NCBI RefSeq assembly: GCF_029227855.1
Contig: NZ_CP074356.1
Source of the DNA: Escherichia coli
GTDB taxonomy: Bacteria; Pseudomonadota; Gammaproteobacteria; Enterobacterales; Enterobacteriaceae
Length of the DNA: 64,000 bases
Strand: one strand, 5' to 3'
A program made the position numbers. The stretch's first letter is position 1, and each line of letters opens with the position of its first letter. Positions 22,701 to 31,138 of this stretch are shown one piece after another.

Positions 22701-25700
22701 GCGACGGCGACGAAAACACATCTGCTGCAACCAGGCGGCCTGAACACCACGTCGGTGAAAAGTGGGCAACAATGGGATGCGCCAAACGGCTGGGCACCGT
22801 TGCAGTGGGTCGCGACAGAAGGGTTACAAAACTACGGGCAAAAAGAGGTGGCGATGGACATTAGCTGGCACTTCCTGACCAATGTTCAGCACACCTATGA
22901 CCGGGAGAAAAAGCTGGTGGAAAAATATGATGTCAGCACCACCGGAACAGGGGGCGGCGGTGGCGAATATCCATTACAGGATGGCTTTGGCTGGACCAAT
23001 GGCGTGACGCTGAAAATGCTGGATTTGATCTGCCCGAAAGAGCAACCGTGTGACAATGTTCCGGCGACGCGTCCACTCAGTGAATCAACAACACAGCCGC
23101 TAAAACAAAAAGAGGCGGAACCTACGCCTTAACTTTACTGTATATCGAGCAATGCCATTACGTGCATAAAATTGGCATTGCTCTTTCTTCATCACGAAAT
23201 ACCAAATACCACTCTTTCTACGGTCTATGCCTTTATTTTCTTTTATTAGAGAAGATTTTAATTTTATTTTATCAACTTGTTAATCATTACACCTCTATTT
23301 ATATTTTCCCCCACTCCCCATTCTCCCTGACAATTTTCTTGTGGAACAAAGTGTTATTTAAGAAACAAGCAAATCATTCTGTCTCTTTAGACAAATTTTG
23401 ACATCAAACATGATCTTTTTCGCTATATGTGTAAGTATATAGCGGTTTTAATTATCAGGATATTACTTATGTCACTAACCAGACGGAGGTTTACACAGAT
23501 TCTTGCGTCGACATTGTTCCTGCATCATCTGCCGTCCTTTGCACTATCAGTCAAATTCTGGGCCTCACTGACGCTTCCCGAAGCCCAAAACATTACACGC
23601 ATCGTCAGCGCAGGCGCGCCCGCCGATTTACTATTGCTGGCTGTCGCGCCAGAAAAAATGGTCGGTTTTTCCTCTTTTGATTTTGCCCGTCAGGCATTAA
23701 TTCCATTGCCAAAGCACATTCGCCAGTTCCCCAGGCTGGGACGACTCGCCGGGCGCGCCAGCACACTCTCGCTGGAAGGGCTTATGGCGTTACATCCCGA
23801 TTTGGTCGTTGATTGCGGCAATACGGATGAAACCTGGATCTCCCAGGCACGGCAGGTTAGCGAACAGACACAAATACCCTGGTTATTGCTTAACGGGAAA
23901 CTGGAACAATCAGCAGAACAGTTAACAACGCTTGGCAAAACGTTAGGCGAAGAGCACCGCACCGCAGAACAAGCCAATCTCGCCAGCCGCTTCGTTGGTG
24001 AAGCTCAGGCATTCGCCACCTCACCCGCCGCTAACCTCAGCTTTTATGCTGCGCGCGGTCCTCGAGGGCTGGAAACGGGCTTACAGGGTTCGTTGCATAC
24101 CGAGGCGGCGGAATTATTAGGTTTGCACAACGTCGCGCAAATAGCCGATCGCCACGGTCTGACACAGGTTTCCATGGAAAATCTCCTGCGCTGGCAGCCG
24201 GATATTATTCTGGTTCAGGAGGCCGTTACTGCAGATTTTATTCGTCGTGATCCTCTCTGGCAGGGCGTGAAAGCGGTTGCGGAACAACGCATCTTATTTT
24301 TAAGTGGCCTGCCCTTTGGCTGGCTGGATGCCCCGCCGGGAATCAACCGTCTTCTGGGATTACGCAGACTTCACGCCTGGCTGGATCCCGCCATCAATCG
24401 CCAGTTTAAAAGTGACATGCAGCATTACGCCCAACTGTTCTGGCATTGCCTATTAAGTGACGCCGACTATCAAAAATTGGTGGCGAGCTAATGAGAACCG
24501 TAAACGGATGTATTTTGCTGCTGGCAGCTATCAGTATCACTTTTGCCGCCGTAAGTGGGGCTTATCATCTCGATATACAGCAACTGCTGGCGCTCATTCT
24601 TCGTCAAGAAAATGTTCCTGTGCAGGAACAAATTGTCTTCTGGCAAATCCGCGTGCCGCGTATTCTTGCTGCGCTGTTTCTGGGCGCGGCGCTGGCAGGG
24701 GCCGGAACCACCTATCAGGGAATGTTCCGTAATCCCTTAGTGTCACCGGATATTTTAGGCGTCTCCGCCGGTGCCGGACTTGGTGCCTGCGCGGCAATCC
24801 TGTGGGGATTATCCATTGTTTACATCCAGCTGTACGCATTTTGCGGCGGGCTGATGGTGGTCGCGGGCGTCTGGTTGATTACGCGTCGGGTGACCCGCCA
24901 CGATCCGATCTTAACCCTGGTGCTGGTAGGCATTGCGTTAGGAACGTTGTGCGGAGCGGGGATATCGCTAATAAAAACGCTGGCCGATCCTTACACCCAG
25001 TTACCGTCAATTACCTTCTGGTTGCTGGGGGGGCTGTCCACCGTGACCTTACGCGATCTCTGCTATGCTGCACCGATCATTCTCATAGGCTCCTTGCCCC
25101 TGTTTTTTCTCCGCTGGCGTATGAATTTACTCACGCTTTCCGACGACGAAGCCCGTTCGCTGGGACTGAACGTGACACGTCTGCGCTTTGGATTAATTGT
25201 CTGCGCCACACTAATCACCGCCAGCACGGTAGCAATAGCGGGCATAATTGGTTGGGTCGGCCTGGTCGTTCCGCACATTGCCCGCTTGTTGACCGGTCAT
25301 AACCATCAGCAGCTGTTGCCCATGGCAATGTGTACTGGCGCGATTCTGCTCCTGCTTACCGATACGCTGGCACGCAGCATTGGAACAACAGAAATCCCAC
25401 TTGGCATTCTGACCGCTTTTGTTGGTGCACCGTTTTTCCTGTTTTTGTTGTTACGCGGAGGTCGCCAGTGACTTTGCTTGCCGTCCGTCATGCGTCTCTG
25501 GGTTACTCCCGCCATCCGGTGCTACGCGACGTGTCCTTCACCCTGTCGCAAGGAACAATTTGTTGTCTGTTAGGAGCCAATGGTTGCGGCAAAACCACAC
25601 TCATGCGCTCCATTCTTGGCGTTATACCGTTATTAAAAGGCGAGATCTTACTGGATAGCCTCCCTGTGCAGACACTCAGCCATCGCCAGCGCGCGCAGGC

Positions 25701-28700: not shown

Positions 28701-31138
28701 AAAATCACGCTACTGGCAGTGGCCAGAGTATGACAAAGAAAGTTTTTATTATCAGGGAACGACCCAACTAAACGATCGTTTTACCCTGAAAAGTCGGCTG
28801 TATCGCGACACCTTTGAAAATACGCTAATGATGTACAACTCGCTGGCTGATTTGAAAAATAAAAAAGGCAGCTACAGCCATTATTCCGATTACAGCGACG
28901 GTGCCGGGTTACAACTGGCAGCCGATGTGCGTGAAAACGATCTGTTGTCGTTTGCCGTTAACTGGAAAGATGACGTACACCGGGAAAAAGGTGCGCCGCA
29001 CGCCGCTTACGATCGCTATGAAGATCGTACCTGGTCGCTCGCCAGTGAATATCAATGGGCTGCTGCCGATAATGTCGATGTCGTGGCTGGAATCAGCTAT
29101 GACTGGCGCGATAGCGTAGAAGCGAAAAAACATGAGAAAGATGGCAGCATCACCCATTATGACGACAACAATCAGTCAGCTTTTAACTGGCAGGTGATGG
29201 GGAAATACCACTTTGCCAATGAAGACACGCTGGCGCTTTCGTACTATGACCGCACACGCTTTCCGACGCTGAAAGAACGCTATACCACGTCCAAACCTGC
29301 GTATAACCAGATAGCGATTGTTAACCCGCAGCTCAAGCCGGAACGCGCGCGCGGGGTGGATTTAACCTGGAATGGTGCCTTCACGCACGACTGGGGGTTT
29401 GAGGTCAGCGTTTACTATAACCGGGTGAGTGATGCCATCCTCTCGCACAATATCGATGCCGATACCATTCAAAATCAGAACAGCGGCACGGTGGATTACA
29501 GCGGTCTGGATGCCGGTATTAAGGGGAAAATCAGCAATATACTGGATGTAGGATTGAGCTACGCCCTGATCCACGCTGACGCCAAACGCAAAGACATCGG
29601 CAAGATAACCGAACTGCCAACGCAGACAATGACCGCATGGATGACTCTCAAACCGTGGGAGCCGTTAAGCGTAACGCTGTCGGAAGAGGCGCGTTCCTCC
29701 AGCTACAGCAACAGTGACGGTTCACAAAAAGCCGCCGGTTTTGCGGTGACCCACATTCGAGCCGATTACACCTTAGGTCATGGCTTCAGCGTCAATGCGT
29801 CGGTCAATAACCTGTTTGATACCCAATATGCCTACAGTGAAGGGTTTATTGAAGAAGGTCGCAATTTCTGGGCAGGTATCGAGTATACGTTCTGATGTGA
29901 AAGCGGATAGCGGCATCTGTATCGCTATCCGCCTTATGAAAATCTTATTCTCTTCGCAGGAGGCGGAATACGCCCAGAACGAGAATAGCTCCCACTACCG
30001 CCACCAGGAAGCTGTGCAGATTAAAACCACTGATGGAGCCGCCAATGCCAAACATGGTCGCCAGCCAGCCGCCGACCACCGCACCGACTATCCCGAGAAT
30101 ACAGGTCAGGAAAAATCCACCACCATCACGCCCCGGCATGATTAGCTTGGCGATAATGCCGGCTATCAGGCCAAAAATAATCCAGGCAATAATTCCCATG
30201 TTCAGGCCCTCGTTTCGATGAATCGGACGCAAGAACTGCTTACGTCAACGCTCTAAGTATAGGCAAGGGCGGAATCGATGCTGGGCGTATGTCGGCTGAT
30301 TTAAGAACAACATGTAAAAAATATTCACGCATTTGTATTAAGTTTTGTTAACTGTGACCGATAAACCAAAGACAGTTTGTCAGTCAGGAGTTTTTCCGCG
30401 TGAGTCATTACCATGAGCAGTTCCTGAAACAAAATCCGTTAGCCGTCCTGGGCGTGTTACGCGATTTGCACAAAGCCGCAATTCCTTTGCGTATCAGCTG
30501 GAATGGCGGGCAGCTGATCAGCAAAATACTGGCAATAACTCCGGATAAACTGGTGCTGGATTTCGGCAGCCAGGCCGAAGATAACAACGCCGTGCTAAAG
30601 GCGCAGCACATTACCATTACCGCCGAAACTCAGGGTGCGAAAGTCGAGTTTACTGTTGAACAACTACAGCAGAGTGAATACTTGCAGCTTCCGGCATTTA
30701 TTACCGTACCGCCTCCCACCTTATGGTTTGTACAACGACGCCGATATTTCCGCATTACCGCCCCACTCCATCCGCCTTATTTTTGCCAGACCAAACTGGC
30801 GGATAACAGTACGTTACGTTTCCGCCTGTATGATTTGTCGTTAGGCGGCATGGGCGCATTACTGGAAACGGCAAAGCCTGCCGAATTGCACGAAGGCATG
30901 CGCTTCGCTCAGATTGAAGTCAACATGGGGCAATGGGGTGTTTTTCACTTTGACGCCCAGTTAATCTCCATCAGCGAGCGCAAAGTGATTGATAGCAAGA
31001 ATGAAACCATCACCACTCCCCGTCTGAGCTTCCGTTTTCTTAACGTCAGCCCGACGGTGGAGCGGCAATTACAGCGGATTATTTTCTCTCTGGAGCGGGA
31101 AGCCCGGGAGAAAGCGGACAAAGTGCGCAACTGATTTA

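Follow-up and report, generated by a model that had tools for sequence, protein, structure and literature searches.

Gene layout and a predicted ModE operator

This study concerns an accessory cluster of six genes, encoding a binding protein, a permease and an ATPase of the ATP-binding cassette (ABC) type, a methyltransferase, the protein ModD and a TonB-dependent receptor, that lies between treA and ymgE in Escherichia coli. We analyzed it within a 64,000-nucleotide (nt) stretch of contig NZ_CP074356.1 (the window), to which positions refer unless another locus is named. An open reading frame (ORF) scan found six intact ORFs on the + strand, occupying 23427/23469-29895, with treA upstream and a convergent ymgE downstream (Table 1). 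Direct reading of the junctions gave TAATG at 24489-24493 between the binding-protein and permease genes, GTGA at 25468-25471 between permease and ATPase and ATGA at 27045-27048 between methyltransferase and ModD; the ATPase and methyltransferase genes are separated by a 9-nt gap before 26236 that contains AGGAA, and modD and the receptor gene by a 25-nt gap before 27925. The original prediction had described a co-directional, compact cluster and had taken the overlaps at 25468 and 27045 as signs of translational coupling within one operon, and both points agree with our reading, which supports a single compact accessory operon with predicted translational coupling.

Two of the start codons differ from those of the mechanical ORFs. 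The ORF of the binding protein opens at 23427, whereas its start is the ATG at 23469, which has CAGGA ahead of it, is the start assigned by the Prokaryotic Genome Annotation Pipeline (PGAP) in other strains and is conserved across genera. The receptor ORF opens at TTG 27904, and a normal signal peptide is obtained from ATG 27925. Downstream of the receptor gene, a perfect hairpin is probably a terminator shared with ymgE.

Table 1. Positions in the window of the cluster, its flanking genes and its predicted control elements
Feature	Position	Strand	Description
treA	21432-23132		Left flank of the cluster
AT-rich leader	23133-23468	+	treA stop to first gene; only the last ~75 nt conserved across genera
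Block TTGACATCAAACAT (TTGAy-N4-nnCAA)	23398-23411	+	23 nt upstream of the ModE box
Predicted ModE operator CGCTATATG-TGTAAG-TATATAGCG	23421-23444	no strand	Inverted repeat with N6 spacer
Shine-Dalgarno CAGGA	23456-23460	+	8 nt 5' of ATG 23469; kept in the cross-genus leader alignment
Binding-protein gene	23469-24491	+	340 aa, class III / Peripla_BP_2, twin-arginine signal MSLTRRRFTQ...SFA
Permease gene	24491-25471	+	Type II BtuC/FecCD-like ABC permease, MolB homologue
ABC ATPase gene	25468-26226	+	MolC homologue; GTG start overlapping the permease stop codon
Methyltransferase gene (yc73)	26236-27048	+	Class I, S-adenosylmethionine (SAM)-dependent, 270 aa, SAM motif LFDMGCGPG intact
modD	27045-27899	+	284 aa, quinolinate-phosphoribosyltransferase fold; ATG overlaps the methyltransferase stop
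TonB-dependent receptor gene (prrA)	27925-29895	+	656 aa; signal peptide, TonB-box-like DSLTVWS, plug, barrel, C-terminal Phe
Right junction of variable segment	29872		blastn against K-12-type strain S3; inside the receptor ORF, 24 nt from its 3' end
Hairpin, perfect 10 bp, GCGGATAGCG...CGCTATCCGC	29903-29932		Read from sequence, between the convergent receptor and ymgE genes
ymgE	29945-30199		Convergent to the receptor gene, right flank

The leader is AT-rich, as had been predicted, with a GC fraction of 0.31-0.38 over 23050-23500 compared to about 0.5 in the surroundings. Close to its 3' end it contains an inverted repeat, CGCTATATGTGTAAGTATATAGCG, with a single mismatch to the E. coli ModE consensus CGnTATATA-N6-TATATAnCG, quoted in the literature as atCGnTATATA-N6-TATATAnCGat (PMC545781). 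This predicted operator is the sole match to the consensus in the window at up to three mismatches, where 0.11 would be expected. As controls, the same pattern recovered the K-12 operators of modA (CGTTATATTGTCGCCTACATAACG, two mismatches, with 19 nt between its end and the ATG) and moaA (CGCTATATACATGATTACATAGCG, one mismatch). The box in the cluster leader ends 25 nt before ATG 23469, a geometry like that at modA. It had been overlooked in the original prediction, perhaps in part because the ATG at 23427, inside the box, was taken as the start codon.

Two alleles of the leader occur in E. coli, with identity down to 91%, and the box is present in both: the leader of the type strain ATCC 11775 is 100% identical to that of the window, and the O157-type allele (91% identical) bears a perfect box. 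When leaders from 12 genera were aligned, the conserved blocks were TTGAy...CA, the ModE box and the Shine-Dalgarno sequence, and nothing else. The TTGA and CA of the first block are invariant in 12 Enterobacteriaceae leaders; the block agrees with the FNR consensus TTGAT-N4-ATCAA at 7-9 of 10 positions and always stands at -23 from the ModE box, while Proteus and Providencia have a plain TTGACT (an ordinary -35) in its place. It could be a -35 hexamer or an FNR-like site, the latter implying anaerobic activation. A sigma-70 scan was uninformative, the sole + strand promoter-like match in the leader, at 23277-23305, not being conserved.

The recurrence of the box was followed across orthologous loci, using an alignment of 17 ModD proteins to retrieve 74 loci from representative genomes (1.397 Mb in total). 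The order binding protein-permease-ATPase-methyltransferase-ModD-receptor is kept in Escherichia, Citrobacter, Raoultella, Enterobacter, Klebsiella indica, Serratia and Symbiopectobacterium, and likewise in Pantoea, Erwinia, Pectobacterium, Affinibrenneria, Proteus, Morganella and Providencia. Within 300 nt 5' of the first gene, 48 of the 49 six-gene loci have a ModE box with at most three mismatches; the number is 38/49 at two mismatches or fewer and 27/49 at one or none, and the box usually ends 10-40 nt ahead of the first ATG. The distance between modD and the receptor gene varies, and where it reaches at least 90 nt the receptor gene must have its own promoter. All 25 loci with such a long gap contain a second ModE box inside it, with 9-52 nt between the end of the box and the receptor ATG; the 28 loci whose gap is below 90 nt contain none there. 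All other boxes with up to two mismatches in the 1.397 Mb adjoin ModD, mod-like or nif genes. The sequence of the half-site CGnTATATA is itself conserved, beyond mere complementarity, and the bases at the two "n" positions often cannot pair with each other (A/G, for example, in E. albertii and O157). As judged from sequence conservation, this distribution is the one expected of a genuine regulon member rather than of a chance palindrome.

A cluster from Shewanella dokdonensis (L085) consists of binding protein, permease, ATPase, methyltransferase and receptor, without modD; its methyltransferase and receptor are 59% and 66% identical to the E. coli proteins. It has two perfect boxes, the only two in 19 kb, at 8975-8998 before the binding-protein gene and at 12759-12782 before the receptor gene. 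Since this cluster does without modD, the receptor-containing variant has its constant partner in the methyltransferase and not in ModD.

In Affinibrenneria salicis, a 20.8-kb locus (L044 and L045) was present twice on one scaffold, about 767 kb apart and with identical gene coordinates. This is an assembly artefact or else a large duplication. The box of each copy is some 250 nt ahead of the binding-protein gene, not 10-40 nt.

Relatives of the importer, the enzymes and the receptor

The six family assignments of the original prediction were upheld by Pfam and NCBIfam profile matches, and we share its view that a methyltransferase and a protein of the quinolinate-phosphoribosyltransferase fold are unusual inside a TonB/ABC uptake operon. 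For the permease, the best solved relative in a Protein Data Bank (PDB) search was MolB/HI1471 (2nq2_A) with 222.8 bits, compared to 175.1 for FhuB, 167.7 for HmuU and 146.4 for BtuC, and the protein is 41% identical to the MolB orthologue of an Aggregatibacter/Haemophilus-type contig (L079). In the reverse search, the nearest relatives of MolB outside the Pasteurellaceae were the Pectobacterium, Symbiopectobacterium and Brenneria members of this permease family. Among NCBIfam models, an archaeal-type BtuC scored best, with 242.6 bits, below its cut-off of 461. The top importer match of the ATPase in the PDB was MolC/HI1470 (2nq2_C; 126.2 bits), and it is 36% identical to the MolC orthologue (E 5e-47).

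The binding protein matches Pfam Peripla_BP_2 and is 44-91% identical to its orthologues, in whose alignment Arg5 is nearly invariant and is followed in almost all by an arginine pair. A PDB sequence search gave 4pag, a Sulfurospirillum structural-genomics protein without an assigned ligand, at 92.8 bits, and MolA (3psa/3psh) at E 1.7e-7; identity to MolA is 21-25% (25% to the MolA orthologue in L079). An AlphaFold2 (AF2) model with a predicted local distance difference test score (pLDDT) of 86.7 again had 4pag as nearest fold, with a template modelling score (TM) of 0.79, while MolA ranked fifth at TM 0.67. By these comparisons, the E. coli-type binding protein is a distant relative of MolA that forms a subfamily of its own.

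MolBC-A of Haemophilus influenzae (HI1470/HI1471/HI1472), the system to which the solved MolB and MolC belong, has been demonstrated to import molybdate and tungstate as a type II system, and an "unknown factor" mediates the repression of molB by molybdate (PMC4031551, Rice et al. 2014). H. influenzae modD (HI1473) stands beside molABC and mod-like genes (PMC3928620). In L079 we found a ModE-like box, CTTTATATACTTTGGTATATAATG, with two mismatches at 6900-6923, about 36 nt before molA, which makes ModE a good candidate for the factor acting on molB. The E. coli cluster thus resembles MolBC-A in that the latter provides the closest solved relatives of its permease and ATPase, and in having a class III binding protein, an adjacent modD and a ModE-like box. 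It differs in that its binding protein has a twin-arginine translocation (Tat) signal and diverges from MolA, and in the addition of a TonB-dependent receptor and a SAM methyltransferase; it also has no counterpart to the ModA-like SBP_bac_11 protein that comes after molC in the Aggregatibacter and Rhizobium loci. A weaker box, with three mismatches, precedes the homologue in Rhizobium jaguaris (L081, about 6860-6883).

With the ModABC/ModE regulon of K-12, the cluster shares the operator consensus, its position just 5' of the first gene and predicted repression by molybdate. ModABC, however, belongs to the type I importers, works with a class II binding protein and has no outer-membrane component of its own, and, unlike ModABC, the cluster is absent from K-12 and was not found listed as a ModE target within the literature searched.

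To our knowledge, the function of ModD has gone unexplained since the 1990s. The cluster protein matches the ModD model TIGR01334 over profile positions 1-277 of 277 with 501.6 bits (cut-off 178.85). The nearest solved structure is the Mycobacterium tuberculosis quinolinate phosphoribosyltransferase (QPRTase) 1qpn, and no ModD structure was found. ModD has the same fold as NadC and most of its catalytic residues, keeping invariant equivalents of QPRTase TRK, HR, Glu201 and Asp222. However, all 17 ModD sequences have Phe (Phe163 here) in place of QPRTase Lys172, Arg105 is replaced by Lys94, and the genomic context of ModD is molybdenum, not NAD synthesis. An assignment as NadC was rejected, since the score against the NadC model (TIGR00078; 135.4) is below the equivalog cut-off of 198.4 and the quinolinate-binding set is incomplete through the exchange of Lys172. 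From its conserved residues, ModD looks like a live enzyme with an altered substrate pocket and not like a pseudogene product.

In other taxa, modD forms part of modABC-like operons or adjoins them, and its neighbours also include modE or mop genes and nifHDK; modD has been described in NifA-regulated nif clusters (PMC4999443). In an Enterobacterales metagenome-assembled genome (MAG; L064, 5900-12100), modD is divergent from nifHDK-like genes, after modD come a gene for a mop-like molbindin and modA/modB-like genes, and the locus has a perfect ModE box at 2272-2295 and one with two mismatches at 10336-10359. Edwardsiella (L024, L042, L050) has methyltransferase and ModD alone, with a ModE box, and Intestinirhabdus (L026) has the order treA-methyltransferase-ModD-receptor without ABC genes, also with a box. 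ModD of Cedecea (L025) is divergent from a modABC-like operon, and two ModE boxes are present there, and in Yersinia alsatica (L054) a box is followed by a modA'B'C'-modD operon.

The methyltransferase matches the Pfam families Methyltransf_25/31/12/11 and has 56 invariant columns across 20 orthologues. Its NCBIfam matches are weak and sub-threshold, the best being the corrinoid-protein-associated methyltransferase CpaM (43.6 bits, cut-off 180), and weak CbiT-like matches were also seen. The Foldseek neighbours of its AF2 model (pLDDT 87.8) are generic small-molecule methyltransferases with TM of about 0.5. In the receptor, Pfam Plug covers residues 39-139 and TonB_dep_Rec_b-barrel residues 223-630; after the signal peptide MRLKKRYLCTALSLAFTQQAVAA comes DSLTVWS, and the C-terminus reads ...EYTF. 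The receptor is below the cut-off of every NCBIfam substrate-specific model (BtuB 80.8 vs 599.7), and receptor and binding protein are below every curated NCBIfam siderophore or haem cut-off (TonB-siderophore 127 vs 223.5; FecB-type 31.8 vs 320).

Candidate cargo of the cluster

The conserved ModE operator, the homology to MolB and MolC and the gene context of ModD together point to molybdenum or tungsten as the substrate, and we consider the cluster to be probably a ModE-controlled molybdenum-starvation operon. On the same evidence, the statement in the original prediction that the substrate cannot be deduced from sequence was too pessimistic. We infer ModE binding and repression, a molybdenum or tungsten cargo and the roles of ModD and the methyltransferase from sequence comparison, and the operon could work as follows. 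With sufficient molybdate, ModE-molybdate would bind 23421-23444, over the core promoter and transcription start, and switch the operon off as at modA; when molybdenum is scarce, the six genes would be expressed as one transcript. The TonB-dependent receptor, driven by the proton-motive force, would carry molybdenum (or tungsten) in some form through the outer membrane; in the periplasm this species would be captured by the class III binding protein, exported there by Tat, and the MolB2C2-type type II ABC importer would pass it into the cytoplasm. On the cytoplasmic side, ModD and the SAM methyltransferase may serve in release, conversion or hand-on of the imported species.

Several observations weigh against this assignment. 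A TonB-dependent receptor is not obviously required for a small, porin-permeant oxyanion, and the published label of the cluster is iron uptake. MolA itself binds molybdate weakly, at about 100 μM (PMC4031551), and the E. coli binding protein lacks MolA's insertion and most motifs conserved among MolA orthologues; given this divergence, its ligand may be something other than bare molybdate. For the methyltransferase, PDB sequence search, NCBIfam and AF2 with Foldseek gave no informative relative. Finally, the ModE palindrome folds as RNA at -10 kcal/mol (z = -2.1), a point taken up below.

The presence of the receptor, the divergence of the binding protein from MolA, and the constant association of the methyltransferase with a receptor variant that can do without ModD, as in Shewanella, hint at a complexed cargo rather than free molybdate. 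We tentatively raise the possibility that a molybdenum complex, such as a catecholate "molybdophore" or thiomolybdate, is imported in a TonB-dependent manner, under ModE control, by the receptor and the divergent MolA-like binding protein, and that its carrier is dismantled or converted by the methyltransferase and, where present, ModD; thiomolybdate formed in sulfidic gut or sediment habitats would be a candidate. If true, this would be the first TonB-dependent molybdenum pathway, would give ModD a biochemical role and would explain the poor binding of bare molybdate by MolA-type proteins. In metallophore operons such as cntOLMI/pseudopaline under Zur, a metal-specific repressor controls a TonB receptor, an importer and SAM-utilising enzymes together. 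The E. coli cluster resembles them in placing an outer-membrane receptor and small-molecule enzymes under a (predicted) metal-responsive repressor box. It differs in having neither an exporter nor a recognisable chelator-synthesis enzyme, in a methyltransferase without similarity to the nicotianamine-synthase-like CntL, and in its predicted sensor, ModE instead of Zur.

A different cargo under the same regulator, which we think unlikely, would be a metal-free organic compound that the cell requires, or is able to use, only under molybdenum shortage and that is salvaged or modified by ModD (through phosphoribosylation) and the methyltransferase, for instance a pterin or cofactor precursor, a nicotinate- or quinolinate-like heterocycle, or a molybdoenzyme product. 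The usual ligands of class III binding proteins, type II importers and TonB receptors are organic compounds or chelates. Such a cargo would also suit an enzyme that has most QPRTase catalytic residues in a pocket altered by the exchange of Lys172 for Phe, a methyltransferase that is like small-molecule methyltransferases and always present with the receptor, and a binding protein unlike MolA at the majority of conserved motifs. However, ModD also occurs with plain modABC-type oxyanion transporters and nif genes, where there is no organic import (PMC4999443), the closest characterised importer carries molybdate and tungstate, and no gene of the cluster indicates a candidate compound.

Iron uptake, in which a Fur-regulated TonB receptor and ABC importer would serve a ferric siderophore or iron chelate and ModD and the methyltransferase would be incidental, seems to us improbable. 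It is the function suggested by the overall architecture, as a receptor with Peripla_BP_2, FecCD and ABC ATPase components is that of a siderophore or haem importer; NCBIfam and PGAP call parts of the cluster iron ABC transporter components, and papers describe it as "possibly mediating iron uptake" (PMC12928451, PMC1890555). That label derives, however, from homology of 1998-2001 and not from experiment, the permease is clearly nearer to MolB than to FhuB, HmuU or FecCD, and the cluster has no siderophore synthesis, esterase or reductase gene. The leader was also searched for a Fur box, as the original prediction had proposed, and none stood out above chance: there was no consensus match at up to three mismatches, the best site agreed at 13/19 positions and was equalled by 24% of shuffles, and no Fur-like block was conserved in the cross-genus leader alignment, where the conserved element is the ModE box. 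The only Fur-consensus match in the window, GAAAATGATAACCAGTATC with three mismatches, lies at 12364-12382, far from the cluster.

We also weighed whether the palindrome at 23421-23444 is a chance AT-rich repeat or an RNA hairpin (attenuator or terminator), with a regulation unrelated to molybdenum. A consensus scan flagged 23420-23445 as terminator-like, with 11 pairs followed by TTTTAATT, and the folding energy given above is in keeping with this; 7 of 200 shuffles, however, fold equally well. Conservation of the half-site sequence, with variable positions that are often non-complementary, identity of the motif with the experimentally known modA and moaA operators and its recurrence before the receptor gene exactly where this is separately promoted make a role as hairpin or chance repeat very improbable. 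Corrinoid or cobalamin uptake by a BtuB/BtuFCD-like receptor and importer, with a methyltransferase tied to corrinoid chemistry, is scarcely credible: it could draw on the sub-cut-off archaeal-type BtuC match of the permease and the weak CpaM and CbiT-like matches of the methyltransferase, but the permease is nearer to MolB than to BtuC, the receptor is far below the cut-off of the B12 receptor model, the regulatory signal is that of ModE, and neither the cobalamin riboswitch for which the original prediction had suggested a search nor any other Rfam family was found at E≤1 across 22900-30400.

Molybdoenzymes (nitrate, dimethyl sulfoxide and trimethylamine N-oxide reductases and formate dehydrogenases) drive blooms of Enterobacteriaceae in the inflamed gut and growth in urine. 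The supply of molybdenum under scarcity bears on pathogenesis and on tungstate-based interventions. Annotations everywhere present the cluster as an iron transporter, and it figures in counts of "iron-uptake virulence genes"; this bookkeeping would be wrong for a ModE-controlled molybdenum system. A dedicated outer-membrane step for molybdenum, if true, would be new, and the role of ModD would become directly testable in a genetically tractable organism. While the genes, the cluster name, MolBC-A and ModE were known already, the proposed link of the E. coli cluster to molybdenum and ModE is apparently new. We found no published ModE or molybdenum link for the cluster, and no statement of a TonB-dependent receptor in any ModE regulon, in a literature search that left regulon databases and a genome-wide survey of ModE sites outside its range, so that prior notice is possible.

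Distribution and history of the locus

At least 80% of the region was present in 2139 of 5426 complete E. coli genomes (~39%), including sequence types (ST) ST131 and ST38 and O157:H7. The cluster is carried by major pathogens as well as by the E. coli type strain and is also found in Proteus, Morganella, Providencia, Citrobacter, Pectobacterium and Shewanella. It has already been named prrA-modD-yc73-fepC, or O-island 55 (OI#55), and labelled only as possible or proposed iron uptake (PMC1890555, PMC12928451); it also corresponds to S-loop 83, ECs1693-1699. The original prediction had allowed that this might be a well-characterised named system. A name does exist, but the system is uncharacterised, and no functional study of the E. 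coli cluster was found in the literature.

In a K-12-type strain the order is treA-ycgY-ymgE without the cluster, in line with the statement in the original prediction that K-12 carries ycgY at this position. E. albertii and many Citrobacter species share the syntenic arrangement treA-[cluster]-ymgE-ycgR, and in Raoultella and Enterobacter the cluster likewise lies 3' of treA. In blastn comparison with the K-12-type strain S3, homology to the window ends at the treA stop and resumes at the right junction within the receptor ORF. Cluster-less genomes keep the last 24 nt of this ORF together with the hairpin downstream of it (window 29872-29940 = L003:4001-4069), and this 69-nt stretch (query 6740-6808) was retained in the 3189 genomes that matched the query but had no cluster. 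Between the two genome types, identity over the final ~78 nt of treA is only 75.6%. Lacking any homology to the cluster, ycgY is no decayed remnant of it. Synteny and the 24-nt receptor remnant in K-12-type genomes argue for ancestral presence followed by loss, and by this reading of the alignments the cluster is ancestral at the treA-ymgE site and gave way to ycgY in some E. coli lineages. Of the "inserted or replaced islet" that had been predicted, the accessory status thus stands, as does replacement in the sense just given, but insertion does not.

Two minor observations were made on individual sequences. A 3.2-kb contig of a "Collinsella sp." MAG (L004) encodes proteins 98-99% identical to those of the E. 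coli cluster; almost certainly, E. coli DNA has contaminated this actinobacterial bin. In the E. coli O157 strain 180-PT54 (L082:1-100), the treA upstream of the cluster is annotated as a frameshifted pseudogene.

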